DNA from: Puniceicoccales bacterium
GTDB lineage: Bacteria > Verrucomicrobiota > Verrucomicrobiia > Opitutales > LL51
Direction of reading: 5' to 3'
DNA length: 64,000 nt
Assembly (NCBI GenBank): GCA_031270475.1
Contig: JAISXO010000018.1
Span: 105-64,104, forward strand
Positions 930-37,214 of this stretch are shown piece by piece (positions within the stretch are counted from its first letter, which is position 1; every line of letters begins with the position of its first letter). Made by a program: the position numbers and the translations under genes. The notes under the pieces were generated by a model. It was not told where the DNA came from and did not search any database. It saw only the letters and a program-made list of their open reading frames with translations.

Positions 930-986
930 TCAAAAAGTCGCTTGACTTCATGAAATAATATTCATAGGTATAAAGAGTCGTAAGTT

Positions 987-1241
987 ATGGCCGAAAAATC
1001 AATAGAACAAAGGGTTAAGGAGGTAATTGTCAATTCTCTCAATATCAGTGAGGAGAAAGTAACCGATGGAGCATCGTTTCTGGACGATTTAGGAGCGGAT
1101 TCTCTCGGAACTGTTGAGCTAATGATGGCGTTTGAAGATGAGTTCGAAAATGAAATCGAGGGCGGTATCCCCGAAGCGGATGCCGAAAAATTACTCACCG
1201 TCAAAGACGTCGTCGAATATATCAAAAGCCGCATCGCATAG
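987..1241 (+). CDS. acpP: Acyl carrier protein
   Basis: 84 aa. [19 protein letters not shown] carries the DSL phosphopantetheine-attachment motif. Lies immediately upstream of fabF. Confidence 0.95.
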
Positions 1242-1254
1242 TCTCTATGGATAT

Positions 1255-4388: not shown

Positions 4389-4620
4389 TTTTCTTAGAAA
4401 TTTGTTAACATTTCATCGTAATTTTATAGCTTTCCAATGGAGGATTGAGGTATGTCAAGAGATTTAAGAATAATTTCGCCGCACTGACATCCAATTTGGT
4501 CGCTGAAACACTCACAAATCTCAATTTATTTTCTCTATTATAATTTTCTTAGAAATTTATTGACATTTCATCGTAATTTTATAGCCTCCCAATGAAGGAT
4601 TGAGGTATGTCGAGAGATTT
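4311..4620 (+). repeat. Tandem direct duplication, 2 x 155 bp (4311-4465 and 4466-4620)
   Basis: The two units align end to end with a handful of substitutions. Each unit holds the last ~26 codons plus stop of the GT9 fusion gene, the intergenic region, and the RBS plus first 5 codons (MSRDL) of the downstream chaperone gene. Confidence 0.9.
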
Positions 4621-5107
4621 AATGGTACAGGTAATCAATGATTTTGGCCAAGAGATTGGTGCACAATTGGAAGTCGATGACGAAGCCTATTGCTGTTTAG
4701 CAGTGGGAGATGAATTTCAAGTTCATTTAAAATTTAATGAACATTTTAACGGAATAATTTTTTATACTGAACTCGGGGAAGTTCCCAATGTCGGGAAAAA
4801 AGAAGTTCTTCGCCATTACGTCATGCAGAATGGAACTATCGAATCCAATAATTTGACATTTTCCTACGATGAAGAAAGTAAACAATTGGGAATGGCATGC
4901 CTATTGCCCGTAACATTTACGAATTTGGATAACCTAAAAAAAATCCTCGAAAAGTTTATTGAACGCTATCAAAAAGAACACGAAGACATGGGACGATTTC
5001 TACAAGGTGAACTTCCCAAGGATGATATACAATTTGTAGATGATAGCGGTAGTACCAATGAAGCAATTCCCACAAGCGGCATAGATCCACAATTTATGCG
5101 TCTGTGA
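4607..5107 (+). CDS. Type III secretion class I chaperone (CesT/SycE-like)
   Basis: 166 aa, acidic. The layout FGQEIGAQLEVDDEAYCCLAVGDEFQVHLKFNEHFNGIIFYTELGEVP...LTFSYDEESKQLGMACLLP...LEKFIERY matches the class I chaperone template. It is a paralogue-like match to the ORF at 36594..37088. Confidence 0.65.
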   Translation: MSRDLMVQVINDFGQEIGAQLEVDDEAYCCLAVGDEFQVHLKFNEHFNGIIFYTELGEVPNVGKKEVLRHYVMQNGTIESNNLTFSYDEESKQLGMACLLPVTFTNLDNLKKILEKFIERYQKEHEDMGRFLQGELPKDDIQFVDDSGSTNEAIPTSGIDPQFMRL

Positions 5108-5365
5108 AGACCTGACACTAAAATAAAAAATGTAACGCCATATTTAGCCATGGGTAAATTGAAATGTACATATCTTTTGTCGTTAAAGGCAATGTTTTTT
5201 GAACAAAACGCTTATGAAATTGCCATTGAACAAAGTGATCTCAACCTAGAGGATGATACGGCAATCCGAGATTTATTAAAAAAATATAATATTTAGTTCG
5301 ATAGTACGGGCAGCAATCGTTATAACAACAGACTCAGAGCACGATTTTTGAGACCTATACCATAG

Positions 5366-6085
5366 CAGGACCAGGTAAACATAGAGAGAACAAAGCCATT
5401 TGACTGTATATTTAGCCTATCCCAGATTCATTTTGCCCAATGGCTCACATCAAAACACTACCCTGTCCATTTTAATGAAACTTCATTTCAAGGCAAAGTG
5501 TCTCCATTGCATTATGAAAAATGGAAGGATGGCGAAATCTGATTAAAACACCAGAAGATTGCCTATAAAACTGTATTCGGAAAACAAATACTCGAGCATG
5601 GACATATCTTTCATCCTCGGCAAAGTATGTTTTTCATCGATGATGGTATTTTTAAGGAATGTATGGAGCAGGTGAAGCGCCTAAAAGAAAATTCTAATAA
5701 TCTCGAAGCTCATACAGCATTTATAAAGGCAATCTCTTGTCCGTTTCAGGGGGCGGACTAGAGATGCTCGTAGACGGTATGGCAAAATATGCCGGCTATA
5801 GGCTCAAACGACCGGAAATTCTCCAAAAAAGCAAGAATAGCATTGGCTCAATTAGGCGAAAGATTTCCTGATAACGATCCTCGAAAACCAGGGAGCCAAA
5901 CGGATATAGGCTATACTATCCGGACTATGGGCTTTGACTTTGAACGAAAAAAGATGAAGAACGCCTCCGGAATTTCTATTGCTATCCCGATGTCTTTGCA
6001 ATGCCCACGACCAGTTTTAAAAAGTTTAATAAGCGATACCAATGTAAATTTGTTCCAATCGAAAGGTAATACTCACCGCAAGTAA
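5366..6085 (+). pseudogene. Decayed gene downstream of the T3S chaperone (one reading frame, internal stops)
   Basis: A single frame (positions congruent to 2 mod 3) stays readable from 5366 to the TAA at 6083-6085. It is interrupted by in-frame stops at 5540-5542, 5759-5761 and 5771-5773. Track ORF 5789..6085 is only its last piece. No recognisable domain. Confidence 0.5.
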
Positions 6086-6156
6086 TTTAAGGAAATATTT
6101 TTTGAACAAATATACTTGATTTTTGCTTGCCGAATAATGTCTTTGCGTCATCATAG

Positions 6157-8643
<2,487 letters not shown>

Positions 8644-8894: not shown

Positions 8895-10628
8895 ATGTCT
8901 ACAAATTTATTGGCAATCGTCGCAGTACTTCCCATTTTAGTGGCCCTCGTATTAATGGTCGGATTGCGGTGGGGAGCCGCAAAAGCAATGACCATCGCCT
9001 GGTTAACCTGCGCGCTCGCTGCCGTATTCGTTTGGAACCTCCCATTACTCTACGTCTCAGCCCTCAGTTTGCAGGGAGTGATTAACGCGGCAAGTGTCCT
9101 CATTATCGTCTTTGGAGCCCTGCTTCTCCTCCATACACTACAATATTCCGGCGCAATGGAAACCATCCAGTACGGCATGCGAAATATCAGTAAAGACATG
9201 CGCGTCCAAGCCATTATCATCGGCTACATGTTTAGCGCTTTCGTCGAAGGAGCAGCCGGCTTTGGAACTCCAGCGGCATTGGCAGCTCCATTACTCCTGG
9301 CCCTTGGATTTCCTCCATTGGCGGCAGCTATCCTCTGCCTAACCTTGAACTCCTTTCCCGTCACCTTCGGTGCCGTCGGTACCCCTATTATTACGGGTTT
9401 CGGTGCCTCCTTACAAGCTCTCATTGAACGGGCGGTCGCCCAAGGAATTTTCCAATCCAATGGCCACTTTTTTGAAGTTATCGGACAGGTCGTCACCTTC
9501 ATGCATGTTCCAATGATTTTTATTCTTCCCATCTTTACCTTGGGATTTATTACCCGCTTTTTTGGTCCTAACCGCTCCTGGAAAGACGGTTTCGCCGCCT
9601 GGAAATTTTGTATCTTCGCCGCCGTGGCTTTTTCTATCCCATACCTATTCGTCGCATGGTTCATAGGCCCCGAAATTCCTTCCATTGCCGGAGGATTAAT
9701 CGGATTATTGATTATCATGGTTGGCGCTCGATATGGATTTTGTATCCCTAAAGAAGTGTGGACCTTTGGAGAACCTTCTAAATGGGAAAAAAATTGGTCC
9801 GGAAATATAACTTTCAATGCCAATAATGAGCTTAAACCGCAAATGAGTCAGTTCATGGCCTGGCTGCCCTATATACTAATCGGTATCATTCTCGTATTCA
9901 CCCGCATTGATATTTTGCCCCTAAAAGAACTGTTCAATCGGCATGGAGTTATTCTCTTCAAGGATATCTTAGGCTACAAAGATGTAAACGAAGGAAGCCT
10001 TAAATTGCTCTATCTGCCAGGAACAATTCCCTTTATGCTCATTTCTATTTTAACGATTTTCATACACCGAATCCCCCCCGGAAAAGCCGTCAAAGCATGG
10101 ATCGAAACCTTTTCAAAAATGAAAACGGCAACAATTTCCCTCTGCGCATCGGTGGCTTTAGTCAAGATTTTTCAGGGCTCTGGAAATTTTACTAATCCGG
10201 ATTTAATCGCCCAGCTGGCAGCGGATGGCGTCGATACCCAGATTTTATCCATGCCGCGGGCTATGGCCGAAGCAATCGCTGGTATCATGGGCCCAATCTG
10301 GCCACTGTTTGCACCCTATGTGGGCGGCCTTGGAGCCGTTATTACTGGCTCTAATACCGTCTCCAATATCCTTTTCGCTCAATTTCAATGGGATGTAGCA
10401 GAATTACAAAAACTTTCTCGAATCGTTATCCTCGCCGCTCAGGGTGCAGGCGGAGCCATGGGACATATGATTTGTGTCCACAATATCGTAGCCGTATGTG
10501 CCGTTCTAGGCCTATCAAACCTGGAAGGAGATATTATCAAAAAAACTTTCTGGCCATTCCTGCTCTACGGCCTCTCTGTCGGTATCGTGGCTTATATCCT
10601 CATCACCATCGGCTACTCTACGTTTTAA
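8895..10628 (+). CDS. L-lactate/glycolate permease (LctP family)
   Basis: 577 aa polytopic membrane protein. [59 protein letters not shown] matches the conserved LldP/GlcA core. Confidence 0.85.
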
Positions 10629-10857: not shown

Positions 10858-13296
10858 ATGCAAGATACTCAAGAAAAAGTTATTCCAACTAATATTACTG
10901 ATGTGATGCAGCGATCCTATATCGATTACTCCATGTCAGTGATCGTCAGCCGTGCCCTACCGGATGTGCGTGATGGCCTCAAACCGGTCCAACGCCGCGT
11001 CCTTTACGCTATGTTACGCGAAGGATTGCTCAGCTCTCGCCCTTTCGATAAATGCGCCGGCATCGTGGGAGAAGTTCTGAAAAATTATCACCCCCATGGC
11101 GACTCTTCCGTCTACGAAACACTCGTCCGCCTCGGTCAGCACTGGGTCATGCGCTATCCACTGATCACTCCACAGGGAAATTTTGGCTCTATCGATGGCG
11201 ATCTTCCCGCAGCTTACCGCTACACGGAATGTAAATTGGAAAAAATTTCAGAAGAAATCCTTCGCGATATCGATGAAGCAACGGTCGATTTTCAACCCAA
11301 TTATAAGGAAAGCACCGTCGAACCCACCGTGTTACCTGCCGCACTCCCTAATCTATTGATGAATGGCTCCACGGGAATCGCCGTTGGCATGACGACCAAT
11401 ATTCCGCCCCACAATCTCGGCGAACTCATTGACGCCCTTTGCCGCATGATCGATGATCCCTGCACAACGGTCGATGATCTGTGTGGCATCATTAAGGGAC
11501 CCGATTTTCCGACAGGCGGCTCTGTCATTGGCATTGAAAATATTCAAAAATATCTCCGCACAGGTCGTGGAATTGTCCGCAATCGCGGCGTTATCGAAGT
11601 CGAAACTCTCTCAAATGGTCGCGAACAATTAATCATTACGACGGTCCCTTATAATACCAATCGAGCGACCATTGTGACAAAAATCGCGGAACTAATCAAC
11701 GAAAAAATTATCGACGAAGCAAGCGATCTGCGGGACGAATCCGATGAAAATACGCGCATCGTTATCGAACTCAAACGCAACGAATCGCCCCGAGTCGTTA
11801 TCAATAAATTGTTTAAATTAACACCAATGGAATCGTCCTTCGGCGTCATTCTATTGGCACTGGATAAGCGGCGGCCCAAGCAGATGAATATTAAGGAGAT
11901 GCTCGATTGCTACCTGGATCATCGTCGAGAAGTTATTTTTCGCCGTACCCAATTTCGCCTCCAAAAAGCTGAAACTCGCGCCCATATTTTGGAGGGCTAC
12001 AAAATTGCACTTGCCAATCTTGATGATTTTGTGAAAATTATTCGTCAATCTCCGAACCGCGACGCCGCAAAGATCGCGTTGTTGGCGAAATATCCCATCT
12101 CCGACCGTCAGGCAGATGCGATCCTCGAACTGCGACTCTACCAATTAACCGGATTGGAACAAAATAAAATCGATCAAGAATACATTGAGTTGATAAAAAT
12201 TATTGAAGAATATCGCCATATTTTAAATAACGAGCAGCTCCTTTTAGGCGTGGTTCGCCAGGAACTCGTCACCGTTAGGGAACTTTATACGACGCCGCGC
12301 TTAACTAAAATTTTACCTGCCGAAGACGAATTTCGAGTAGAAGATGTCATCGCCAATGAGGGCTGTATCATTACGATTACGGAAAATGGCTTCATCAAAC
12401 GCACCGAAAATGCCGCCTACCGCTCCCAAAAACGCGGAGGAAAGGGCGTAATTGGAGCTGGGCAGCGGGACGACGATACCATTACCCATCTTTTATCGGC
12501 GAGTACCCACGATTACATCATGTTCGTCATGACAAATGGGCGAATTTACATCGAAAAGGTATATGAAATTCCAGAAGGCTCACGAACTTCTAAGGGGCGT
12601 TCTCTCGTCAACATCATTGAAATGCAGGTCGAAGAAAAAATGGCGGCGATGATCTGTTTTCCAGAATTTACGGCGGAACGCTATTTAGTGATGTGTACAA
12701 AAAACGGTATTACAAAAAAAACGAATCTCAATGATTATGTCAATTATCGTCGGGGAGGGATTATTGGCATCGACGTGGACGATGGCGACCGCGTCATTGA
12801 AGCGCGCCTTTCCAATGGCCAGGATGAACTCGTTCTGATTACCCACAATGGCATGTCGATTCGTTTTAGTGAGCAGGAGTTACGCGATCAAGGTCGTGCA
12901 ACGCGTGGCGTTCGCGGCATTACTTTACATTCGGCGGACTATGTCGTTGCGATGACTATCGTCGACAATGGGGCAACATTTTTGATAGCCGCTGAAAATG
13001 GTCAAGGTAAGCGTTCTTCTTTCGAGAGTTATCGCCTACAAAAGCGCGCGGGACTGGGAGTCATTGCGATCAAGATGGCAAAAAACGTAGGTGTTGCGGC
13101 GGCATTAACAGTCAATGACAGCGACGAAGTGATGATGGTAACGGAGCGGGGACAAGCCATTCGCTCGCCGGTAAAGGACATTCGCGTCATCGGCCGCACG
13201 ACCCAGGGAGTTCGTCTGATTAATCTTGAAAAAGACGACCATCTCATCGGTGTGAGTCGCATTGTTGAAATTGATGATTCCGAGGAAAAATCATAA
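10858..13296 (+). CDS. gyrA: DNA gyrase subunit A
   Basis: 812 aa. Motifs present: DGLKPVQRRVLYAM, HPHGDSSVYETLVRL (QRDR) and AAYRYTECKL (active-site Tyr context). C-terminal beta-pinwheel repeats are present. Confidence 0.97.
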   Translation: MQDTQEKVIPTNITDVMQRSYIDYSMSVIVSRALPDVRDGLKPVQRRVLYAMLREGLLSSRPFDKCAGIVGEVLKNYHPHGDSSVYETLVRLGQHWVMRYPLITPQGNFGSIDGDLPAAYRYTECKLEKISEEILRDIDEATVDFQPNYKESTVEPTVLPAALPNLLMNGSTGIAVGMTTNIPPHNLGELIDALCRMIDDPCTTVDDLCGIIKGPDFPTGGSVIGIENIQKYLRTGRGIVRNRGVIEVETLSNGREQLIITTVPYNTNRATIVTKIAELINEKIIDEASDLRDESDENTRIVIELKRNESPRVVINKLFKLTPMESSFGVILLALDKRRPKQMNIKEMLDCYLDHRREVIFRRTQFRLQKAETRAHILEGYKIALANLDDFVKIIRQSPNRDAAKIALLAKYPISDRQADAILELRLYQLTGLEQNKIDQEYIELIKIIEEYRHILNNEQLLLGVVRQELVTVRELYTTPRLTKILPAEDEFRVEDVIANEGCIITITENGFIKRTENAAYRSQKRGGKGVIGAGQRDDDTITHLLSASTHDYIMFVMTNGRIYIEKVYEIPEGSRTSKGRSLVNIIEMQVEEKMAAMICFPEFTAERYLVMCTKNGITKKTNLNDYVNYRRGGIIGIDVDDGDRVIEARLSNGQDELVLITHNGMSIRFSEQELRDQGRATRGVRGITLHSADYVVAMTIVDNGATFLIAAENGQGKRSSFESYRLQKRAGLGVIAIKMAKNVGVAAALTVNDSDEVMMVTERGQAIRSPVKDIRVIGRTTQGVRLINLEKDDHLIGVSRIVEIDDSEEKS

Positions 13297-15300: not shown

Positions 15301-16008
15301 CTAAAAGTTTAATAAAGAAGCAACAACGCACTGATTAGCAGATAGCCCTATCTCTCTCAGTCCATTCATAACAAATTGTACACCCAACGCGACCAAAAAC
15401 AACCCCGACAAACGAAAGCTTAATTTTAGAATCGTTGGCGTCAACCACTTTGCTCCCTTCGATGTCAATACTAAGATGACGTACACCAAGAAAATAGCCA
15501 GCGAAATAGCCAACAGGCAGGAAAGAAACTCTCCTGCACCTTCACTTGCTGCTCGATTGGCGATGATAATGGTCAAAGAACCTGGTCCGGCAATAATCGG
15601 TATAGCCAATGGCGCAATCGCTATGTCTTGACGCTTTTTCTTAGGTAAATTGCCAATTTCTTCGGCCTCATTTTTGGATATCACAATTTCAGGATCTTCC
15701 GCGCGCAACATACCGAACCCAACAAAAACTAACAATAGGCCACCGGCAATATTGAACGCCTCCATGGCAATACCGATTGCCGCAAGAATTTTCGGCCCTC
15801 CTAAAGCAGTCAACACCATGACACTCCAAGCAATTCCGCATGCCATTTTTGCCGTCGTTAAACGTTCCCTAACTGTACAATTCGTAGTCATACTCAGATA
15901 GAGCACAATCACAGCCAATGGACACATCGCCGCAAAAATTTGATAAAAACAATTTACGAAGAAACTATATCCTCCTCCTGTACATATTCCAACAAACAAA
16001 ATATTCAT
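15301..16008 (-). CDS. MarC family (UPF0056) integral membrane protein
   Basis: 235 aa with multiple TM segments. IAIAPLAIPIIAGPGSLTIIIA is typical of MarC-family proteins. Confidence 0.7.
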   Translation of the reverse strand: MNILFVGICTGGGYSFFVNCFYQIFAAMCPLAVIVLYLSMTTNCTVRERLTTAKMACGIAWSVMVLTALGGPKILAAIGIAMEAFNIAGGLLLVFVGFGMLRAEDPEIVISKNEAEEIGNLPKKKRQDIAIAPLAIPIIAGPGSLTIIIANRAASEGAGEFLSCLLAISLAIFLVYVILVLTSKGAKWLTPTILKLSFRLSGLFLVALGVQFVMNGLREIGLSANQCVVASLLNF

Positions 16009-16353
16009 ATTAATAGGTTACGTTTTTCATACACAAATAAGATTTTTAGGAAGTCAATAAAATTCATCATCGCAAAAATCTTTCATGGAATTTCGCCGAG
16101 ATTCTTACATTTTTTTTATTCGGACTCAACACCAACAATTACATATTGCCAACAATAAACCTACCCGATGACATTCAAACAGAACCACCGAGACAATAAA
16201 AACACACAAACATACATAATTCTCGAATCCTAACAAACATTCTTCCGGGAGAATCTCTCCTCCAAATTTCTTCTAAAAAGAGAAACTCCCTTTTATCTTC
16301 CATCTCGAACACTTTACTTTCGCTTCGTGTCCGCACAATAAAGCATTCGCAGA

Positions 16354-17700
16354 TTACTCCATCAGTTTCACCAAGTATATGCGAGGCCACCGAATCTCTA
16401 TTGGTTTACTCTCGACCGAATCTTTTCTTGGAGATCCAAATGGATTCTTACGCTTTGGACTCGGCTCCGGAGTTTTCGATGAGGTATCCGACGTACTTGC
16501 AAGCATGGCTGCTTCTGAACTTTTGGTCGTTTCCGATGGCTGCAACTCCGATAGCTGGGGCTCCGACGACCGGGGATCGATTAATTTCTCCAGTATTTTG
16601 TCATAGACCGCTTTTGCTAAAGCATATCCCGGTCCCTGCAAAGCTAAAACGCTAGGCAAACTATTACTTCCAAGCCTCTGGAACTCGCGAAGCGCCGCTT
16701 GCTTATCTCCTCCCGTTGCCCCTGTTACCCAAGCCAATGTACTTGCAAACTCCATAAATACTCTATTTTTTTCACTATCTGACTGATCACGCCCTATAGC
16801 CTCTAAAAAAATCTTCCCCTGTTCTGCTGGCTCTTCGCTCGCATACAGAGCATCTACTAGTCGATCTCTATCCGTATCCGTGATCTGAGTCTGCTGCTCT
16901 TTTGCACGCTCACGTACCATACGATCCATGACCCACATAACGGCCACAAGCTGGCTGTGTATTACCCCATTAGGATCGGGATTATCGGCACAAACATCGT
17001 CATCCTCCATCCAATCTTTTGCTTTCGGTAGTGGTAACTCATGAAGTTTTGTCAAGTTTTGATATACACAATCACCCTTGGCTTCTAAAATGTTTAAAAG
17101 GGCACTCCGATCATTATTATTGACAACCACTTGCCAATCATCTCGAAACGCCACTACAAATGGTATTAAGTCTTCCGTCAACTTTAATAAGTATAACTCC
17201 TCCTGCTCAGCTTCGGATATCTCCTCCTTCGCGAGTATTTTATCCTCAACTTGCTTAAGCATTCGCTTCATCGGTTGTTTTTTTATATCATCCGGAAGCT
17301 TCTTGCCTCCCGGATTCCAATCTACCCTCCCTGTAACAACTTGACAAAGCTGAACTATGCGGGAAAAATTCAAACTGGAATCGTTTTGTATATCCCATAA
17401 AACAGAAGCTATCTTTTCCACGTTGACTTTAGTGCCATCGGCAAACTCAAGAAATCCCCCTTGAACACCTTGGTGACTAAAATTCTGCACATCGTCAGCG
17501 TCCCATTGCACAAGCTGCACGAGTTGCCGTTGATCCGGATTTGCCGGAACTTCATTTTGTTGGGCTTGCTTTGACGAAGATATTCCATCTGGAACTGACG
17601 GCTGATCCTCATCAGTTGCTAATAACTCTGCGCTACAAGTACATAATAAAGCCAAAGCTAATAACACAATTCCATTTTGAGATTTATCACTCTTATCCAT
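16354..17700 (-). CDS. Hypothetical secreted protein, next gene downstream of sctU
   Basis: Starts at MDKSDKSQNGIVLLALALLCTCSAELLA (signal-peptide-like) and is preceded by GGAGAAGG. Has a Ser/Pro/Glu-rich C-terminal tail. No recognisable domain. Confidence 0.5.
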   Translation of the reverse strand: MDKSDKSQNGIVLLALALLCTCSAELLATDEDQPSVPDGISSSKQAQQNEVPANPDQRQLVQLVQWDADDVQNFSHQGVQGGFLEFADGTKVNVEKIASVLWDIQNDSSLNFSRIVQLCQVVTGRVDWNPGGKKLPDDIKKQPMKRMLKQVEDKILAKEEISEAEQEELYLLKLTEDLIPFVVAFRDDWQVVVNNNDRSALLNILEAKGDCVYQNLTKLHELPLPKAKDWMEDDDVCADNPDPNGVIHSQLVAVMWVMDRMVRERAKEQQTQITDTDRDRLVDALYASEEPAEQGKIFLEAIGRDQSDSEKNRVFMEFASTLAWVTGATGGDKQAALREFQRLGSNSLPSVLALQGPGYALAKAVYDKILEKLIDPRSSEPQLSELQPSETTKSSEAAMLASTSDTSSKTPEPSPKRKNPFGSPRKDSVESKPIEIRWPRIYLVKLME

Positions 17701-17846
17701 AGTGAAAACCTTCTCCAAAAAAAAACTACCTGTCAAGTTTTTTTTCGTTACTTTTTATAGTGAAAATTTTTTTATCTAATATTAAAACAATTCCCGATCA
17801 TTTTAATATGCTAAACCACATTTTTGAAAACTTCTTCAACACTTAA

Positions 17847-18926
17847 TCAGTTGAAAACCGCATTTTCTCGGGCTCGCTCGTCTTTGATATCCTTGACCCA
17901 ACGCAAAACTTCTGCAACCGGTGCCATTAAATCCCTCGGAATGTATTCCATGACGCCCGCCGTATCCAATAGCGCGTGTGCTAAAGGTACATTGCGCATA
18001 ATCGGTATCCCTTCCTTTTCCGCAACAGCTATCATTTGTTCCGCAATGATGCCAACTCCTTTCGCAATCACAATCGGTAGGGGAAAGACGGGGCGCTCAA
18101 AATCGTAGAGTAATGCAATTGCGACATGCTCCGGATTCGTGACTAAAGCCGAAGCCTGTTTTGTCTTTTGAGGGGGATCCTCTTCCATCATTTCTTTGTG
18201 AATTTGTTTGCGTTTACTCTTAACCTGCCCATCGCCCTCGGATTCCTTATACTCCCTTTTGACTTCATCTTTACTCATCTTAAGCCCCTCTTTCCACTTG
18301 TATTTCTGATAGGCATAGTCGAGAGCCGCCATTGCAATGTATGCAAAAATGACCATCTTTGCGAAATTAGTCATAATAGGGCCAAGAATACTCAATACAC
18401 CGGATAACTTGCAAAACGGTAATAAAATTAAATCGTCAAATACATCTTTTACAACACCGACCAACAGGAAGCCCAAAAAAATGATTTTTACCGTTGACTT
18501 CAGCAGTTCGACGAGACTTTTCATGGAAAACATCTGCTGCGCCTTTGACATGGGATTAATTTTACTGAGATCGGGCTGTATCGTTTTCGATGTAAATAGG
18601 ATCCCAACCTGTGCAAAATTTCCAATGAGTCCCATGAGTGCTACCACGAAAATCGCTGGGAAAACAATGCCTCCCGTCTTCATCAAAACACTCCAAAGCG
18701 CCTGACCAGTATACCCCCCCAGATCATTACATCGCCCAATAAATTGGGTAGGGATCAAAATCATCTCTGAAATATTCTCTAAATGTTGATTCCAGCCCAA
18801 TCCAACATAACAAAATGCACCGATTAAAGTAAGCGTCGAATTGACGTCCTGACTCTTCGCAATATTTCCTTTATTGCGCGCGTCACGTATACGTTTCGGT
18901 GTTGGATCTTCGGTTTTTTCGCTCAT
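17847..18926 (-). CDS. sctU: Type III secretion export-apparatus switch protein (SctU/FlhB family)
   Basis: 359 aa. Motifs present: N-terminal EKTEDPTPKRIRDARNKGNIAKSQD, four TM segments, MSKDEVKREYKESEGDGQVKSKRKQ, an autocleavage-site variant NPEH, and a C-terminal GIPIMRNVPLAHAL. Confidence 0.9.
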   Translation of the reverse strand: MSEKTEDPTPKRIRDARNKGNIAKSQDVNSTLTLIGAFCYVGLGWNQHLENISEMILIPTQFIGRCNDLGGYTGQALWSVLMKTGGIVFPAIFVVALMGLIGNFAQVGILFTSKTIQPDLSKINPMSKAQQMFSMKSLVELLKSTVKIIFLGFLLVGVVKDVFDDLILLPFCKLSGVLSILGPIMTNFAKMVIFAYIAMAALDYAYQKYKWKEGLKMSKDEVKREYKESEGDGQVKSKRKQIHKEMMEEDPPQKTKQASALVTNPEHVAIALLYDFERPVFPLPIVIAKGVGIIAEQMIAVAEKEGIPIMRNVPLAHALLDTAGVMEYIPRDLMAPVAEVLRWVKDIKDERARENAVFN

Positions 18927-18957
18927 TTATCCCATTCCTTTCACTTGCTATCGCTCC

Positions 18958-19746
18958 CTATTTTAAGAAATGATTAACAAAAAACGACATTTTACTTTGC
19001 GTGAAAAAATAGTAATGGAACAGTTTTCCCAGCAACGAATAATAAAATAGTAAAAAAAACATCGATAGCCAGCTTTTAACCGGCATTGCCATAAAAAACA
19101 CATTTAATTGTGGTGCAAAACGACTGATCATTCCCAAGCCAAACTCCGCAAGAAATAATACGATTAAAATCGGTGCTGAAAAGCAAAAAACGGACTCCAT
19201 AATCTCATCCGCAAACGACATCATAAATGCCGGGAAATTGACGTCAAATGTAGGGAAAAATGTAAATACAGGCCACATAATATAGGACTTATAAATCACG
19301 CCGAGGAAAAATAAAAATCCCCCCATCGAAAAAAACAGCGTTGCAATCATCTGAGTCAAAAAGCTTCCCAAAAGCGATGTCTGCGAACCAACAACGGGAT
19401 CAAATGTCATGGCCTGCGACGACCCTCTCTGAATATCAATAATGAATCCAACACTATCCGTAATATAAAAAATAAATCCCGATAAATAACCCAACATGGC
19501 CCCCAGGATAACCTCCTTGCAGATCGTTACGAAGATAATAAGCACCGGAATCTGTACCGTTGGTAACGTCGGATACACGGCATGGAAAAGGGGTAAGGCC
19601 ATGGCAAAAATGATGACATTGCGTCCCGTCCCCATGATGTATTGCTTGGCAAATACCGGCGTTAATGACAACGCTGCCGCCAAACGTATGATACACATCA
19701 TCATTAAAAATAAAACTGATGTTACTTCCTCTAGTCCCGCTCCCAT
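18958..19746 (-). CDS. sctT: Type III secretion export-gate protein (SctT/FliR family)
   Basis: 262 aa polytopic membrane protein between sctS and sctU. Its start overlaps the sctS stop (ATGA). FliR/YscT-like hydrophobic pattern. Confidence 0.85.
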   Translation of the reverse strand: MGAGLEEVTSVLFLMMMCIIRLAAALSLTPVFAKQYIMGTGRNVIIFAMALPLFHAVYPTLPTVQIPVLIIFVTICKEVILGAMLGYLSGFIFYITDSVGFIIDIQRGSSQAMTFDPVVGSQTSLLGSFLTQMIATLFFSMGGFLFFLGVIYKSYIMWPVFTFFPTFDVNFPAFMMSFADEIMESVFCFSAPILIVLFLAEFGLGMISRFAPQLNVFFMAMPVKSWLSMFFLLFYYSLLGKLFHYYFFTQSKMSFFVNHFLK

Positions 19747-20015
19747 TAATGAATAATCGTTGGAAAATTGGTAAACAGGCTATTGGCAAACGCGAGTAAC
19801 TCATCGCCGATCCAATAGGCCGATAGCATCAAAACCGTAACAGTAAAGAATAGTTTGATGGCAAATCCCAATGTTTGTTCTTGAATCTGGGTAAGGGCTT
19901 GTAACAAGCTCGTTATCAATCCCACACACGTCGCCACTAAAATGGGCGGCATCGATAACATGAGAATGAGTATCATTGCCTGCTCCGTGATACTAATGAT
20001 AAAATTCTGATCCAT
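19746..20015 (-). CDS. sctS: Type III secretion export-gate protein (SctS/FliQ family)
   Basis: LLQALTQIQEQTLGFAIKLFF is the SctS/FliQ signature. The internal Met (MDQNFIIS) gives the usual ~89 aa length; the track ORF extends to 20042. Confidence 0.85.
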   Translation of the reverse strand: MDQNFIISITEQAMILILMLSMPPILVATCVGLITSLLQALTQIQEQTLGFAIKLFFTVTVLMLSAYWIGDELLAFANSLFTNFPTIIH

Positions 20016-20070
20016 ACGCCTAGCCATTGTTTTTTTAGTCAAATTTTCGCAAATAGCAAGCCCTTAAACT

Positions 20071-20955
20071 TCAACGACTGGCAATAAAAAAACGGTCAAA
20101 TCGATTCAAGTCTTTCAAAACTTCCGTTTGCTTAAAATATTTTCCGTATACTTTTTGGAGTTGTTGGGCATGAGAAATACCCGTTTCAATAGCAATAATG
20201 CCATTTTTTTTGAGAAACTTTTGGGCTCCATCGAGAATAATTCTAATATCCTGGAGACCCTCTTCTTCGGCAATTAACGCCGAAATAGGCTCGTAGCGAC
20301 GTATTTCATCCTGGATCCCATCAAATTCCTGGCGTGTCAAGTAGGGTGGATTGGAGACAATGAGGTCAAATTGCTCCCGCCATTTATCACCTTCGAAAGC
20401 ACTGTACCAATCCGATTGGAAGAATTGCAAGTTATTCACACCATTTCGCCGCATATTTTCGCGGACGACCTCCAACGCCAATGGTGATCGATCGACAGCA
20501 AATACGCAACTCTTCGGGAAATGTTTTGCCAAAGCAATCGCAATAGCACCGCTCCCCGTTCCCAGGTCCAAAATATTCAAGGATGAAAAATTCCCCCCAA
20601 TAGAAAAGGCATTCCCAATGCGTTTACTAGTATTATTTATAAGCCATTCGACAAGTATTTCCGTTTCTCCGCGCGGAATAAAGACGCGGGAATCAACCAT
20701 CAAGTTTACATCATAAAAATCAACTTCGCCCAAAATATATTGCAATGGTTCTCGCTGGGCACGCCGCACCAATAACTCCAAAAATTGTATTTCCGATTCT
20801 TTACTGACCGTTGTTTGGCCCTGTAATGTTAACTCAAGCCGTGAACATCCCAAAACATGGGCCAATAACCATTCCGCATCGTTCTTTGAGCCCTCGACAT
20901 TGTCAGAGCATAAAAAACTTGTCCCTTCTGCGAGCAATTCAATAATCGACGCCAT
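20071..20955 (-). CDS. prmC: Release-factor glutamine N5-methyltransferase (PrmC/HemK)
   Basis: Motifs present: EPLQYILGEVDFY, ILDLGTGSGAIAIALA (SAM site) and LIVSNPPYL (NPPY). Confidence 0.9.
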   Translation of the reverse strand: MASIIELLAEGTSFLCSDNVEGSKNDAEWLLAHVLGCSRLELTLQGQTTVSKESEIQFLELLVRRAQREPLQYILGEVDFYDVNLMVDSRVFIPRGETEILVEWLINNTSKRIGNAFSIGGNFSSLNILDLGTGSGAIAIALAKHFPKSCVFAVDRSPLALEVVRENMRRNGVNNLQFFQSDWYSAFEGDKWREQFDLIVSNPPYLTRQEFDGIQDEIRRYEPISALIAEEEGLQDIRIILDGAQKFLKKNGIIAIETGISHAQQLQKVYGKYFKQTEVLKDLNRFDRFFIASR

Positions 20956-20963
20956 AGACCGCG

Positions 20964-21338
20964 TTACCGAAGATAGGGCGTTTCCCGCATTGCAACATCA
21001 TTTTCACTGGTTCGTTGATTGTTTTTCCAACGAACTAAATTCTCATTTTGGAACTTATCCTTATTGTCCCTATGGGACGGCCGCAATGCCCCGAGCGATG
21101 TGATAGAATTGGGAGAAATACCCACGAGAAATTTTTGTCCATTGCACTGGATAATGGCAACGTAATGGCGTCCGCCAACGGATAGACGCTCGGTTACGCA
21201 CAGATGGTCGGGATGGGAGCGATCGCCATTGGGCACCTGCGGAAAAAACCAACCCTTCCTGCGAAAAAGTACGAAAAAATATCCGCCCAACGCAAGAAGA
21301 ACAATAAAAACTACCGACTTAACAACCTCTTCAAGCAT
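20964..21338 (-). CDS. FliO-like small membrane protein
   Basis: 124 aa with a single N-terminal TM (VVFIVLLALGGYFFVLF). This is followed by LCVTERLSVGGRHYVAIIQCNGQKFLVGISPNSITSLGAL, which parallels E. coli FliO LKISASASLGARERVVVVDVEDARLVLGVTAGQINLL. By-eye similarity only. Confidence 0.45.
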   Translation of the reverse strand: MLEEVVKSVVFIVLLALGGYFFVLFRRKGWFFPQVPNGDRSHPDHLCVTERLSVGGRHYVAIIQCNGQKFLVGISPNSITSLGALRPSHRDNKDKFQNENLVRWKNNQRTSENDVAMRETPYLR

Positions 21339-21346
21339 AGGACAAA

Positions 21347-21697
21347 TTAGCGTTTCCTTTCCTTGACTTTCATCGCCTCTTTTCCAATTCGCTTCCGAAT
21401 ATAGTAGAGTTTGGCACGCATGGGAATGCTCACACGCTCGACTTCGATCTGCGCAATGCTGGGTGAATGCAGGGGAAAGACGCGCTCCACGCCCTCACCG
21501 GCAATCACACGCCGAACGATAAATGAAGCAGCGATTCCGGAATGCTTTCTCGCAATAACGATACCGGAAAAAATCTGAATTCGCTCTTTGTCGCCCTCGC
21601 GGACTTTGACATGAACTTTCACGCCATCACCAACTTTAAAATTGTCGCGATGAGGAATAAGTTGCTTCGAAGTAATATTTTGAATAATTGGATTCAT
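21347..21697 (-). CDS. rplS: 50S ribosomal protein L19
   Basis: 116 aa. FKVGDGVKVHVKVREGDKERIQIFSGIVIARK...ERVFPLHSPSIAQIEV is the classic L19 sequence. Confidence 0.95.
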   Translation of the reverse strand: MNPIIQNITSKQLIPHRDNFKVGDGVKVHVKVREGDKERIQIFSGIVIARKHSGIAASFIVRRVIAGEGVERVFPLHSPSIAQIEVERVSIPMRAKLYYIRKRIGKEAMKVKERKR

Positions 21698-21758
21698 ACT
21701 TTTCTATCTATTAGAATTGGAAAACTAAAAACATTAGTCAAACATTTTTTAAATAGCG

Positions 21759-22430
21759 TCACCCATTGAGTAAATCGGGCCTTCTCTGGCGCGTACGTTC
21801 GAGGCGTTGCCGTTGGCGCCATCGATCAATGGCAGCATGGTCACCGCTCAGTAATACCTCAGGCACTTCCATGCCTTCAAAGACTCTCGGCTGAGTGTAC
21901 TGTGGAGGGGAAAGTAATCCGTCACTGAAAGAATCTTGTTCTAGAGAAACTGCATTACCTAAAACACCGGGAATATGGCGGCAAATCGCATCAATAACAA
22001 CCGCAGCTGCTAAAGTACCATTCGTTAAAACGTAATCCCCGATAGAAATTTCCCAGTCGATGTATTTATCGCGGATGCGTTGATCAATGCCCTCGTAGTG
22101 GCCGGAGACAAAGATAAGGTGCGATTTCTGAGCCAGTTGCTGGGCAATGGCGGTCGTAAAAGGGGTACCATCGGGACAGAGATAAATGACAAAGGCCTGC
22201 TCCGTTTTCAGATCGCGAATGGCTTGCGCGAGAGGTTCTGGCTGGATCACCATCCCGGCACCGCCGCCGAAAGGACGGTCATCGACTCTCCGATGTTTAC
22301 GAGTAGACCAGTGACGAAGGTTATGGGGGCGACAATGGAGCAGTTGATTTTTTTGAGCACGGGCGACGATCGATGTGCGTAAGACTCCATCGAGCATTTC
22401 TGGAAATAGCGAGAGGAGATCGATAATCAT
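21759..22430 (-). CDS. trmD: tRNA (guanine37-N1)-methyltransferase
   Basis: MIIDLLSLFPEM..., VDDRPFGGGAGMV and ISIGDYVLTNGTLAA motifs. Canonical trmD-rplS adjacency. Confidence 0.93.
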   Translation of the reverse strand: MIIDLLSLFPEMLDGVLRTSIVARAQKNQLLHCRPHNLRHWSTRKHRRVDDRPFGGGAGMVIQPEPLAQAIRDLKTEQAFVIYLCPDGTPFTTAIAQQLAQKSHLIFVSGHYEGIDQRIRDKYIDWEISIGDYVLTNGTLAAAVVIDAICRHIPGVLGNAVSLEQDSFSDGLLSPPQYTQPRVFEGMEVPEVLLSGDHAAIDRWRQRQRLERTRQRRPDLLNG

Positions 22431-22583
22431 TCACGGACGGGAATCGGTTGAAGCGGCTCATTTTTTTGGCTAATTATTTTAGTCCACATGTGGGAGAAAA
22501 ATTGCGCGATGTCATTGGGAGTCAAGTTTATTCGAAGTGCTATGGAGTTGTTTCATTGCAATTATACATAGAAGTGGGCAATG

Positions 22584-22617
22584 AAAAGGGGCCTTTGACA
22601 ATTCAAAAGCCCTTTTT
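22584..22617. terminator. Putative bidirectional intrinsic terminator hairpin
   Basis: AAAAGGGGC...GCCCTTTTT stem flanked by an A-run and a T-run, just downstream of the minus-strand gene that ends at 22634. Confidence 0.45.
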
Positions 22618-22633
22618 AGATTGCTTTGATATC

Positions 22634-24352
22634 TTACATCCTATTCACCCGCCTGAAACCCGTTCCGGGAGGAGGCTTACTAGGAGAACCATCAGCATTC
22701 CGCACTGCCCTTTGTTCAAGGGGTGGTGGCGTTTTAAGGACGCGAGTCGGGTGTTCTTCTGACTGGGACGCTGTTCCTCCCACAGGAAGACGATAAGCAG
22801 ACGATAAATTTCTATCAAGGAGCCACTGACGAGAAACCGACCCTTTGCGGCTCAGAGAATCCGACGCATCATCCGACTGGGACGTAGAATCATCCACATC
22901 CGACGAGGACGTAGAATCACCCAGAAAGGTCACCCGCCCCGACTTCCGTGGCGTCTTCACATGTCCTAGTTTGGTACTACAATCTGCCACAACTGTTGTT
23001 ACTTTATTATTACGCTCCAGGAAATGCTGTAATAACGATAGCAAGCCAAGCTTTCCTGTTGTTGCTGGCTTTACTGTTGTTGCTGGCTTTACTGCTTCAG
23101 GTGGAAAGGGTTTGCCGACGAGAAATTCTCTTTCCTCGGGAGTAACCTCTCCACTCTTTGCTAACAAAGACAATTTACCCCATAGACTTACTACGTCACC
23201 ATAGGAACGCGTATCAATACCCTTGAAATTAGGGAAATCCCTTGCTGTTCCTCCCTTAAAACCCAACGTTCCGAAGATATCGTCAGAGAATAATGTATCC
23301 TCGAATAGCGCTGTTAAGTTTTGACTTAGGAAAACATGGTATGTTCTCAATGTATACATATTTGTTAATGGAGGACTATCATAAACTTCAATCTCGGTCT
23401 CGATCAAATAATTCCCATCTGCCTTATCCTTGAATTCTATCGCAGGAAGACTATAATCGGCACTGAAACTTGTTCCATTTGGCTGTTTTACCCAGCCTTG
23501 GCTAGCCAAAACCGATAGGGCTTTTCCTTTCTGTTCATTCCCCTCTCCCTTCACAGTCATGGGATAGAAGTCCTTGATTTTATTAGAATAGTCCCTGTTC
23601 TGAGTAAAGATGTCATTGGCAACGCCTAAACCAGAAAACTTGATCGTTTCTTCAGCCTCCATCGGAAAATCCACCCTATCGCAACAAAATTTAACCTGAG
23701 CTTTGACGCTACTATCATCTTTCAATACTCCGGAGGGAATCATTGTGGGAGAAATGAGTAAAAAACGTCTCCTATTGGGATTGTGGCGATAAATCACTAT
23801 ACTAAAACCCGTTTTGAGATCATGAGAAATGCTAGGACAACTGATGGCAGCCAATATATTTCCGTAGAGATTTAAAACCTCACTGCCATTCTTAGCCTTT
23901 ACATCCTCCACCGTTGCAACCGACTTATCAGCAGGTTTTTTCCCGGGATACCAATAAAATTCTTTATCCGCAGAATGTGCCGGCACGAATATCGGCATTA
24001 CTGGCATCCAATATCTTTCCTCGCTTTTTTTCGAATTCGCATCATAACTCTTTCCGTCGGCAGCGAGCTTATAAAACCACAACGGTTGAACTCCTCTCTT
24101 TCCCCTAACAGTAGGATCAGCCGAAGCAGAGGTAAAAATAGTCGCTTCTCCCTTCTTCTTAGGAAGCTCCGCTTTCTGGAAATTAAGCGAAGCATCCACC
24201 TGAAAAACCAGAGATCTCTTGTTTTTGACGGTGTTCTTTCCTATTTTTGTTCCATCGGGCACCTCAAAGCTCACACTATCCCAGGCATTTGATAAAAGGG
24301 GTGTCATTAGAAACATCCCACTCAATAACTTATTTATAATTTTATAATCCAT
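22634..24352 (-). CDS. Hypothetical secreted protein
   Basis: 572 aa. N-terminus MDYKIINKLLSGMFLMTPLLSNAWDS is signal-like. The C-terminal third is low-complexity (Ser/Asp/Pro rich) and includes KPATTVKPATTG, encoded by an 18-bp x2 repeat at 23058-23093. No recognisable domain. Confidence 0.5.
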   Translation of the reverse strand: MDYKIINKLLSGMFLMTPLLSNAWDSVSFEVPDGTKIGKNTVKNKRSLVFQVDASLNFQKAELPKKKGEATIFTSASADPTVRGKRGVQPLWFYKLAADGKSYDANSKKSEERYWMPVMPIFVPAHSADKEFYWYPGKKPADKSVATVEDVKAKNGSEVLNLYGNILAAISCPSISHDLKTGFSIVIYRHNPNRRRFLLISPTMIPSGVLKDDSSVKAQVKFCCDRVDFPMEAEETIKFSGLGVANDIFTQNRDYSNKIKDFYPMTVKGEGNEQKGKALSVLASQGWVKQPNGTSFSADYSLPAIEFKDKADGNYLIETEIEVYDSPPLTNMYTLRTYHVFLSQNLTALFEDTLFSDDIFGTLGFKGGTARDFPNFKGIDTRSYGDVVSLWGKLSLLAKSGEVTPEEREFLVGKPFPPEAVKPATTVKPATTGKLGLLSLLQHFLERNNKVTTVVADCSTKLGHVKTPRKSGRVTFLGDSTSSSDVDDSTSQSDDASDSLSRKGSVSRQWLLDRNLSSAYRLPVGGTASQSEEHPTRVLKTPPPLEQRAVRNADGSPSKPPPGTGFRRVNRM

Positions 24353-24532
24353 ATCCTTTCCTTTGTTAAATTTTTAATTGAATTAATAACTAACGGCCTT
24401 AATTATAAATTCTTTTTCGCATTTGCAAGTATTTTTTTATTTTTTATAAAAATGTTTCGCGAAACTATAAAAAACTTCCTTACATAAAGATTAAGCTTGT
24501 GATTTCAATGATCATACTTAGCCTGAAACACC

Positions 24533-26068
24533 ATGATTAGCAAACTTCTCGAGCAAATTCGTCGAGATATTTTTTCAACGGAACTTGCGATGACTAAAAA
24601 AAATGTCGGCACTATCCTCTCCATTGCTGATGGCGTCGCCCTTCTCAATGGCCTCTCCGAAGTCATGTATAATGAAATGATCGACTTCGGTAATGATACC
24701 TTTGGTGTCGCCCTAAACCTCGAAGAAGATTTCGTCGGCGTCGTCATCCTCGGCGATTGTTCCCATCTAAAAACCGGTGACCAAGCGACCGCTACCGGGA
24801 AATTACTGTCCGTCCCCGTCGGAAAAAATCTCCTCGGCCGCGTCGTCAACGCTCTCGGCCAACCCATCGACGGTAAAAGCGCTATCACCGCCGAAGAATT
24901 CTATTCCATCGAAAAAATCGCCCCCGGAATTATGCCGCGCCAATCCGTTAACCAGCCGCTCCAAACGGGTATCCTCGCCATCGATGCCATGATTCCCATC
25001 GGCCGTGGCCAACGGGAACTCATCATCGGCGACCGCGCCACAGGAAAATCCACCATCGCCATCGATACCATTATTAATCAGGCCAAAATTAATCGGGAAG
25101 GCCTCGCTTCCGGCAATCCGGACTTTCGTCCCGTATACTCCATCTACGTCGCCATCGGACAGAAAAATTCTACCATCGCACGGACCATTAAAACACTCAC
25201 AGACCATGGAGCTATGGATTTTACGATCGTCGTCAATTCTTCCGCCGCCGATAATCCCGCGAACCAATACATCGCCCCCTACGCTGGCTGCGCCATGGGA
25301 GAATGGTTCATGCATAACGGTATGGATGCCCTCATCGTCTATGATGACCTCTCGAAACATGCGGTAGCGTATCGGCAAATTTGTCTCATTCTCAAACGCC
25401 CCTCCGGCCGAGAAGCCTATCCGGGCGATGTCTTTTACTTGCATTCCAAACTGCTCGAACGGGCCGCCCGACTCAATGCGGAAAATGGCAACGGCTCTCT
25501 TACTGCATTACCTATTATCGAAACCCAGGCCGGTGATGTGTCAGCATATATCCCGACAAATGTTATTTCAATCACCGATGGACAAATTTTTCTCGATACG
25601 GATCTTTTTAATAGAGGTGTACGACCAGCGATCTCGATTGGGATTTCCGTCTCCCGAGTGGGCTCCACCGCTCAAATGAAGGCGCTTAAACAGGTGGCAG
25701 GAAAATTGAAACTCGAATTAGGCCAGTACTACGAACTGAGCTCTTTTGCGCAATTTGGCTCCGATCTGGACGCCAAAACACAGCAACAACTCGACCGCGG
25801 CGCCCGCATTGTGGCCCTATTTCGACAGCCAGCTAATGCCCCACGAAGCCTTTTAGACCAGATTCTTGTGCTTTGGGCAATTAAAACAGGCATTTTCGAT
25901 ACCATAGCCCTCGACCATATCAATACCGCAGCGGAATCTTTACTCACCTATTTTGCAACCGCCGGTATGCAAGTTTTAATGCAAATTACCCAAAAAGGCC
26001 AATTGACAGAAGAAATCGAAGGACATCTTATGGAAATTGTTACCGATTGGCAAAAAACACAGGCGTAA
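24533..26068 (+). CDS. atpA: F1-type ATP synthase alpha subunit (stand-alone)
   Basis: 511 aa, colinear by eye with E. coli AtpA. Motifs present: [63 protein letters not shown] and [29 protein letters not shown]. No other atp gene flanks it. Confidence 0.9.
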
Positions 26069-36593: not shown

Positions 36594-37088
36594 TTAGGCT
36601 CCAAACATCATCATTCCCGGCATACCAATACCGCCATCAGCCGCAATGGCACTTCCTTCGGCTTCGCTATCGGTCATCGCCATCCATTCTTCGAAGCGTT
36701 TCGTATCCCAATGTTCCATTGCACTGACAAATTTCTCTAAAATATTGTAAAAAATATCATTATCAAGCATATTCATATCGCAATATTGTGTCAGTAAAAG
36801 TGTACCATCGGATGGATCGAGCGAAACATTTGCACCGGCCGTATCGCGCCAAAAATGACAACTTTCAAGAATTCCACGGTAAAAAACTGCCTCATCTGCT
36901 GGTAATGCACCGATATAAGCCAAAAAACAAAGTTGTTCTTTTTCAATATCAATGGAACATTTAACAAAATATTTTCCATCAAAAGCAAGATAACAGTCGT
37001 TACTTTCATCCAAGTCCAGTCCTTCGATTTTCAATTTGTCACCAAGTATTTGAACATACGTCCTAAAAGTATCCAAACAATTTTCCAT
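36594..37088 (-). CDS. Type III secretion class I chaperone (CesT-like)
   Basis: Starts at MENCLDTFRTYVQILGDKLKIEGLDLDESNDCYLAFDGKYFVKCSIDIEKEQLCFLAYIGALPAD...VSLDPSDGTLLLTQY...LEKFVSAMEHW. Acidic and about 164 aa. Its stop lies 13 nt upstream of the GNAT start. Confidence 0.65.
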   Translation of the reverse strand: MENCLDTFRTYVQILGDKLKIEGLDLDESNDCYLAFDGKYFVKCSIDIEKEQLCFLAYIGALPADEAVFYRGILESCHFWRDTAGANVSLDPSDGTLLLTQYCDMNMLDNDIFYNILEKFVSAMEHWDTKRFEEWMAMTDSEAEGSAIAADGGIGMPGMMMFGA

Positions 37089-37214
37089 ATTATGTCCCAA
37101 GAATATATTTTTTTCGCAAAAAAACAATCCAAAATTTAACAATGATATTTATTCTTTAAAAATATATCCATCGATTTAAAATAAATTTAATTTAAAATTT
37201 TCACCATCAAGGAA

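Follow-up and report, generated by a model that had tools for sequence, protein, structure and literature searches.

The locus described here raises the question of why three type III secretion system (T3SS) genes for the export gate stand directly behind trmD and rplS, with a release-factor methyltransferase gene, prmC, where sctR would be expected, and from where the missing gate subunit is supplied. The DNA analyzed, hereafter the window, is a stretch of 64,000 nucleotides from a metagenome-assembled genome (MAG) of an uncultured bacterium of the Puniceicoccales (Verrucomicrobiota, class Opitutae). On balance, we consider it probable that these genes belong to a scattered, injectisome-type T3SS, that genome scrambling has put a sctS-sctT-sctU module behind trmD-rplS-fliO-prmC, and that prmC is not a replacement for sctR.

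The seven genes of the block lie on the minus strand in the order trmD, rplS, a FliO-family gene, prmC, sctS, sctT and sctU, and the open reading frame (ORF) listing together with Pfam matches put each of them where a first-pass annotation of this DNA had placed it (Table 1). The gaps read from the sequence are 61 nt between trmD and rplS, 8 nt between rplS and fliO and likewise between fliO and prmC, 28-55 nt between prmC and sctS, and 31 nt between sctT and sctU, with sctS and sctT overlapping by 1 nt. With intergenic distances of 0-61 nt, the tight spacing and the colinearity of the gate genes with trmD-rplS described earlier were borne out, as was the partial nature of the export gate, of which the window has S, T and U but lacks R. 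The start of sctS is likely the ATG rather than the upstream TTG, as judged from the predicted product of 89 amino acids, which is the length of SctS in relatives. Rfam and tRNA scans returned no match in or near the block.

Table 1. Features of the seven-gene block, of the remaining window and of fliO loci in related contigs (window numbering unless a contig is named).
Feature	Coordinates	Strand	Support or remark
trmD, tRNA m1G37 methyltransferase, at the head of the colinear block	21759-22430	minus	Pfam PF01746, 211.9 bits, E=1e-62; same position in L001, L003, L004
rplS, ribosomal protein L19	21347-21697	minus	Pfam PF01245, 134.9 bits, E=1e-39
FliO-family gene, 124 aa	20964-21338	minus	PF04347, 39.1 bits (cut-off 22), E=8e-10
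prmC, release-factor glutamine N5-methyltransferase	20071-20955	minus	PrmC_N and MTS domains; NCBIfam TIGR03534
sctS, injectisome export-gate subunit	19746-20015 (ORF to TTG 20042)	minus	PF01313, 82.9 bits; NCBIfam TIGR01403
sctT, injectisome export-gate subunit	18958-19746	minus	PF01311, 165 bits; NCBIfam TIGR01401
sctU, export switch protein	17847-18926	minus	PF01312, 346 bits; NCBIfam TIGR01404
Terminator-like hairpin between upstream orphan gene and trmD	22589-22612	minus	sole minus-strand terminator-like site in 16000-25000
Large protein, 460 aa, flank of the block	16354-17736	minus	no Pfam/NCBIfam match
Large protein, flank of the block, upstream side	22634-24352	minus	no Pfam/NCBIfam match
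CesT-family type III chaperone gene, unlinked	4607-5107	plus	Pfam PF05932, 50.1 bits
CesT-family type III chaperone gene, second	36594-37142	minus	Pfam PF05932, 60.8 bits
Ankyrin-repeat proteins (three)	48676-49293, 50490-51332, 54009-56033		
Eukaryote-type protein-kinase fragment, short	408-875		
atpA	24533-26068	plus	without other atp genes
gyrB	6163-8643	plus	
L-lactate permease gene	8895-10628		separates gyrB from gyrA
gyrA	10858-13296	plus	
fliO beside rsmE, contig L008	10001-11114		
fliO beside rsmE, contig L009	9362-10648		
fliO beside rsmE, contig L212	9215-10522		

The three gate proteins are of the injectisome type. SctU scored 368.1 bits against the NCBIfam SctU model (cut-off 358) and 296.5 bits against the FlhB model (cut-off 349.25); SctT reached 206 bits (cut-off 163) as against 115.9 bits for FliR (cut-off 168.6), and SctS 96.5 bits (cut-off 76.5) as against 75.6 bits for FliQ (cut-off 88.9). 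All three thus lie above the Sct cut-offs and below the flagellar ones. A neighbour-joining distance tree of SctU, built without support values, agrees, as the Puniceicoccales clade nests with SctU proteins of non-flagellar systems from Verrucomicrobiales, Opitutia and proteobacteria, and outside it stand the flagellar FlhB proteins of Bacillus, Fictibacillus, Pseudomonas and a Bdellovibrionaceae MAG. The choice between flagellum and injectisome, which the first-pass annotation had left to be made, thus falls on the injectisome for S, T and U, and we reject a flagellar reading of them by the equivalog scores and the tree.

The arrangement was also found beyond the window. Three independent metagenome contigs (L001, L003 and L004) have the full order from trmD to sctU, while L002, which is short, shows the core fliO-prmC-sctS-sctT; gaps are -35 to +71 nt across the four. 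Identity to the window proteins is 44-67% for FliO (L001/L002 and L003) and 68-88% for SctU (L003 and L004). Because it recurs in independent contigs, the seven-gene order is not a product of chance. In addition, sctS-sctT-sctU without sctR was found in L005, next to tsaE and orphan genes, in L006, next to a dCMP deaminase gene beside a Mu-like prophage, in L090, next to a 5'-3' exonuclease gene, and in L091, next to comM and a divergent cluster with sctW-like, TyeA, YscX and SctV genes. All eight Puniceicoccales loci examined therefore carry the module without sctR, in five different neighbourhoods. The SctU tree reads (((window, L003), L001), L004), joined by L090, then by (L005, L091), and then by L006; the nearest outgroups of this clade, L007 (Verrucomicrobiales) and L012 (Opitutia UBA3534), both have contiguous sctR-sctS-sctT-sctU. 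As the break between R and S is common to all eight loci in their various neighbourhoods, it must be old and predate the adjacency to prmC, and the fliO-prmC neighbourhood is derived, since it is confined to the crown subclade of the tree. The Mu-like prophage of L006, a basal Puniceicoccales contig, occupies positions 1-6500 (portal, terminase and Mu-like protease genes), a few kb upstream of sctS-sctT-sctU, and is a possible agent of local rearrangement there.

We then asked where sctR is. Six-frame tblastn of the window with Verrucomicrobiales SctR and with E. coli FliP (used only as a probe) revealed neither sctR nor fliP, and the same probes had no match in L001-L006. Moreover, a Pfam scan of 47 window ORFs, which are nearly all the non-overlapping ORFs of at least 110 amino acids, gave no FliP, FHIPEP, T3SS ATPase or secretin. 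Of the core parts SctR, SctV, SctN, SctQ, SctJ and SctC, the window has none by these searches. The sctR gene is thus missing from the window and not hidden by annotation and, R being absent beside S-T-U, SctR is needed from another locus, both as had been proposed. When species-representative genomes were scanned with an alignment of SctR, at least 80 loci came back, and in most of them sctS directly follows sctR. Among the matches listed, sctR is not followed by sctS in L015, L018, L020, L040, L044, L047, L051 and L077, some of which have too little downstream sequence to judge. Two of these, a human-gut MAG (L015, MGYG-HGUT-04418) and a yak-rumen MAG (L051, RGIG10339), labelled Verrucomicrobia and Opitutales, show the order (sctJ)-sctL-sctN-sctO-sctP-sctQ-sctR, followed by an aminotransferase gene in the former and by tig-clpP-clpX-rsmE in the latter. 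Judged from their gene order, these clusters are the break between R and S seen from the opposite side, and it is because such related MAGs carry sctR in a separate cluster that we infer it to lie elsewhere in the genome of the window's bacterium as well. RsmE, compared in order to tie L051 to the Puniceicoccales clade, showed 31-35% identity all round and did not discriminate kinship.

Some features of the SctR proteins and genes met in these scans can be recorded here. In both L015 (9992-10768) and L051 (9714-10505), SctR is encoded by the last gene of the T3SS cluster, and about 35-40 residues are inserted into the loop that follows its second helix. From position 5645 of L033, a Kiritimatiellaeota MAG, sctR and sctS apparently form one fused ORF, as the alignment passes from SctR into SctS-like sequence. 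L073 and L074, labelled Verrucomicrobia and Verrucomicrobiae, encode a chlamydia-like SctR with an N-terminal extension and the motif 'MMMLSPLTIALPLKL', which suggests either that these MAGs are related to Chlamydiae and mislabelled or that a T3SS of the chlamydial type occurs in Verrucomicrobia.

With regard to transcription, there is no terminator-like site on the minus strand from trmD to sctU, in line with what the first-pass annotation had assumed. The hairpin upstream of trmD likely marks the 5' boundary of the transcription unit, and behind it, at about 115-120 nt upstream of where trmD starts, lies a TATAAT hexamer. Because the spacing is tight and no terminator-like site intervenes, the seven genes may be co-transcribed, and a single unit from trmD to sctU is plausible but unproven.

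These observations can be joined in the following explanation, which is the one we favour. The genes sctS-sctT-sctU form a small module, separate from sctR from the base of the clade onwards. In the crown subclade, rearrangement set this module just downstream of prmC and, with the clade's singleton fliO placed between rplS and prmC, a tightly packed block of seven genes arose. Read-through from the trmD promoter would then provide constitutive, housekeeping-level expression of the three gate subunits and of FliO. SctR would be contributed by another locus, most likely where an sctJ-L-N-O-P-Q-R cluster ends, which is its position in the related MAGs, and the FliO-like membrane protein would help it to oligomerise before SctT and SctS join, by analogy with Salmonella flagella, where FliO is reported to aid the assembly of FliP (PMC5542435, PMC5542437). 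The product of prmC would be a housekeeping bystander without a part in secretion.

One step in this explanation concerns FliO. The 124-residue protein, for which a profile hit had been the point in doubt, does match the FliO family above the Pfam gathering score (Table 1), and its 33.2 bits against the NCBIfam equivalog model TIGR03500 fall below the cut-off of 55.25; by these scores, it is a member of the PF04347 family and not a typical flagellar equivalog. An AlphaFold2 model built from 33 sequences placed a helix at residues 2-28, strands at 46-55, 58-65, 68-75 and 78-85, and a disordered tail, with predicted local distance difference test values of about 70-90 over the beta-sheet (means of 10-residue blocks). 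The predicted fold is an N-terminal transmembrane helix followed by a small four-stranded antiparallel beta meander, and this helix-plus-small-sheet core is the conserved FliO core given in PMC12403147. Searches of the PDB for a solved FliO structure found none. An exact look-up of the window's FliO protein in the contig index had no match. In a set of 1.84 billion representatives, a profile of 16 close orthologues retrieved 736 proteins at E<=0.001. Of the top matches with an organism name, the closest are from Puniceicoccales; among the best matches as a whole, many are metagenome proteins without a name, and ordinary flagellar FliO stands further down.

In other Puniceicoccales subclades (L008, L009 and L212), fliO is a singleton beside rsmE, among mla genes, fabV, grpE-dnaJ, recA and lepA, with no T3SS gene within 10 kb. 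Neither fliP nor sctR lies within 10 kb of fliO in the window, in L001-L004 or in these three contigs. The gene is thus clade-wide, and its proximity to sctS-sctT-sctU is confined to the window's subclade, so that the specific linkage between fliO and the gate genes that had been read from the window does not extend to the rest of the Puniceicoccales. In both arrangements, fliO adjoins a gene for a translation-related methyltransferase (rsmE in L008, L009 and L212; prmC, with trmD, in the window), which is maybe a coincidence. In L005, the genes without annotation that lie upstream of sctS were considered as a cryptic FliO and rejected, having neither a transmembrane helix nor a profile match.

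The alternative that survives best is that the FliO-like protein is unconnected with type III secretion here, being a small membrane protein of another role whose position is coincidental; we regard this as unlikely, if still worth serious attention. The three rsmE-adjacent loci and the score under the equivalog cut-off speak in its favour, and a role outside the T3SS has been proposed for the orphan FliO of Chlamydiia (PMC12403147). Against it, assisting FliP assembly is the only FliO function known to have been demonstrated (PMC5542435, PMC5542437), and both non-flagellated lineages of the Planctomycetes-Verrucomicrobia-Chlamydiae (PVC) group that keep an orphan FliO have injectisomes. Moreover, our profile search of fetched loci found FliO-like ORFs directly upstream of sctR in Myxococcales (L043), whereas in Sphingomonadales and Luteimonas they lie within the T3SS clusters or adjoin them, in agreement with PMC12403147. 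The further proposal that the orphan FliO proteins of non-flagellated PVC bacteria, namely those of Chlamydiia and of the present Puniceicoccales radiation, act on SctR as assembly factors of the injectisome is a tentative one, about which we are somewhat more doubtful than confident.

Several points weigh against the scattered-injectisome explanation as a whole. Among the matches listed, the genome scan gave only relatives and not the sctR of the window's own lineage, and when metagenome contigs were scanned with a degenerate DNA pattern for FE[ILVMF]GF..YLPF, which was less specific than intended, the matches listed again held no more than a second copy of the organism of L015. That L015 and L051 are kin to the window's lineage is drawn from record titles and the matching break. 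The case for co-transcription consists of spacing and the absent terminator-like site, and has to be read as inferred. The link between FliO and the injectisome is circumstantial, most of the clade having fliO away from T3SS genes, and a flagellar system may exist elsewhere in these genomes. In addition, the SctU autocleavage motif in the window reads NPEH (within 'VTNPEHVAI') and not the canonical NPTH. NPTH is the near-universal form of this motif.

Some of these points would fit a decaying system, in which the loss of sctR has left S, T, U and FliO as remnants without function that continue to be transcribed because of their place in an essential operon. We consider this improbable. The absence of an sctR for the lineage within the searches described, the rearranged genome with its many orphan genes, the non-canonical SctU motif and the truncated FliO fused to PrmC in one relative (see below) are all what such decay could produce, but all the ORFs are full length, match the Pfam models over nearly the whole model length, and remain intact across a deep clade, in which SctU shows 46-100% identity over about 80 distinct sequences. 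Across 16 FliO orthologues, 30 columns are invariant. The SctU motif is conserved and not random, NPEH being kept in about 50-55 clade members, with a few NPAH or NPGH and with NPTH in basal members and outgroups, and the Asn, Pro and His of the motif are retained in NPEH. Chaperones and ankyrin-type candidate effectors persist in the window, and the related MAGs keep sctR together with the cytoplasmic parts.

The first-pass annotation had prmC occupying the slot of sctR, and this reading was not borne out by comparison with the sister lineages, in which sctS-sctT-sctU is preceded by unrelated genes and never by sctR, fliO-prmC being found only in the crown subclade. A functional version of it, in which PrmC has been recruited to secretion, for instance by modifying a T3SS component, or in which the termination of translation is deliberately co-regulated with secretion, appears very improbable to us. 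The short gaps on either side of prmC, conserved in four loci, and a fusion ORF in the relative P0141 could be cited for it. Nevertheless, PrmC scores as a normal equivalog, with 265.5 bits against a cut-off of 199.1, its translation shows the NPPY motif ('SNPPYL') and the S-adenosylmethionine-binding 'LDLGTGSGAIA', and it is apparently an intact housekeeping enzyme; the other members of the clade have sctS-sctT-sctU with no prmC nearby. We know of no T3SS that requires PrmC, and SctR, for whose family SpaP/FliP structures are on record, is a structural pentamer, not replaceable by an enzyme. As for P0141 (contigs of about 1.2 kb from the European Nucleotide Archive, related to window positions 20071-21338), its ORF of 141 amino acids carries the first approximately 70 FliO-like residues followed by PrmC's catalytic part ('ILGLGTRSVAIAAAL...AVDQS'). 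The adjacent fliO and prmC genes seem to have been fused by a deletion; the ORF confirms that the two genes adjoin in a further relative, and hints that the FliO domain has been lost there.

Least probable of all is a flagellar export-gate remnant (fliO, fliQ, fliR and flhB) that persisted once motility was lost, comparable to the reduced sets of flagellar genes in some endosymbionts: the order and the FliO-family gene do recall flagellar operons, but S, T and U pass the Sct models, fail those of FliQ, FliR and FlhB and group with non-flagellar systems in the tree, TyeA, YscX and SctV genes stand near S-T-U in L091, and the window encodes CesT chaperones.

Elsewhere in the window, two CesT-family chaperone genes are present, of which the unlinked plus-strand one is part of the same secretion system's toolkit, and three ankyrin-repeat proteins and a short kinase fragment are candidate T3SS substrates. 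Ankyrin-repeat and eukaryote-type kinase proteins are typical of bacteria living with eukaryotic hosts. The other genes are housekeeping genes and many that encode proteins without a Pfam match, and the gene content of the window indicates a bacterium that is apparently host-associated. As a guess, the MAGs may stem from gut samples or from samples associated with protists. Both large proteins flanking the block are candidates for fast-evolving secreted or effector proteins; L001, L003 and L004 lack the 460-residue one at this position, and the one on the upstream side ranges from 313 to 706 amino acids among relatives. Operon scrambling seems to be genome-wide, because atpA stands alone, gyrB and gyrA are split, and trmD-rplS has neither rpsP nor rimM upstream. 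The permease gene that separates the gyrase genes hints at the use of host-derived lactate.

Should the favoured explanation be true, the Puniceicoccales would be a second PVC lineage, after Chlamydiae, with dismantled injectisome operons whose pieces sit in housekeeping transcription units, and this would support the view that constitutive expression under obligate host association relaxes selection for clustering. If the orphan FliO of PVC bacteria indeed serves SctR, FliO would be an ancestral T3SS component kept in some non-flagellar systems and not a flagellum-specific add-on, and the window's subclade would offer the first genomic hint tying this protein to the injectisome and not to menaquinone enzymes. 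The locus provides a modest genomic argument for an orphan FliO serving the injectisome in non-flagellated PVC bacteria. It also points to an undescribed and diverse Puniceicoccales radiation, with dozens of distinct SctU proteins, that carries type III chaperones as well as ankyrin-repeat and orphan proteins. The understanding of T3SS as such is unchanged, and known patterns are extended to a new lineage.

Both patterns have precedents. Complete but scattered non-flagellar T3SS (NF-T3SS) have been reported in all Chlamydiales and in Hamiltonella (defensa), and constitutive expression was suggested to relax selection for clustering (Abby & Rocha 2012, PMC3459982). FliO has been described in virulence-associated T3SS (vT3SS) operons of Myxococcota and several Pseudomonadota, and as an orphan in Chlamydiia that lack flagella, where it shares an operon with a YbjN-family protein, MqnB and MqnD (PNAS 2025, PMC12403147). 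The earlier statement that a FliO gene beside injectisome genes is unexpected was therefore overtaken by the latter report. Puniceicoccales and Opitutae are without mention in the text of either paper, and a literature search for a Puniceicoccales T3SS or for 'Nucleococcus' secretion systems found no paper. Altogether, a scattered NF-T3SS with FliO in a non-flagellar setting is new to this lineage and known in kind.

A close parallel is with Chlamydiales and Hamiltonella, as in the Puniceicoccales, too, core injectisome genes are spread over several loci among housekeeping genes. As in Chlamydiales, this is apparently a host-associated PVC-group bacterium with dispersed CesT chaperones and candidate effectors, for which constitutive expression is plausible. 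The two differ in the break point, which separates R from S-T-U in Puniceicoccales and R-S-T from U-V in Chlamydia (cdsRST and cdsUV; L054-L072), and in the joining of the module to a trmD-rplS block. They differ also in sequence: against chlamydial loci, the window's SctS shows 39-50% identity and its SctT 27-38%, and against loci of the Opitutia, Pirellulaceae and Nitrospiraceae type, these values are 54-57% and 41-42%. Unlike the chlamydial systems, S, T and U of the window group with the Verrucomicrobiales/Opitutia type, so that scattering is common to both and family membership is not.

With regard to FliO, the Puniceicoccales gene resembles the chlamydial orphan in that it usually stands alone among housekeeping genes in bacteria whose type III genes are of the injectisome type. 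Its positions differ, as the window copy lies two genes upstream of sctS, the Myxococcales gene (L043) adjoins sctR, and the chlamydial copy keeps company with the YbjN-family, MqnB and MqnD genes. The Verrucomicrobiales cluster L007 belongs to the same T3SS family, with a SctU 46% identical to that of the window, but it is contiguous (sctD ... sctJ-L-N-O-P-Q-R-S-T-U), with sctR before sctS and without FliO, whereas the window has S-T-U plus FliO and prmC. Finally, the homologues follow the order of the flagellar fliO-fliP-fliQ-fliR-flhB operons except for the missing P/R member, with FliO preceding the gate genes; in contrast to those operons, the gate proteins of the window fail the flagellar models, neither fliP nor any other flagellar gene is present in the window, and a methyltransferase gene stands in the middle of the block.

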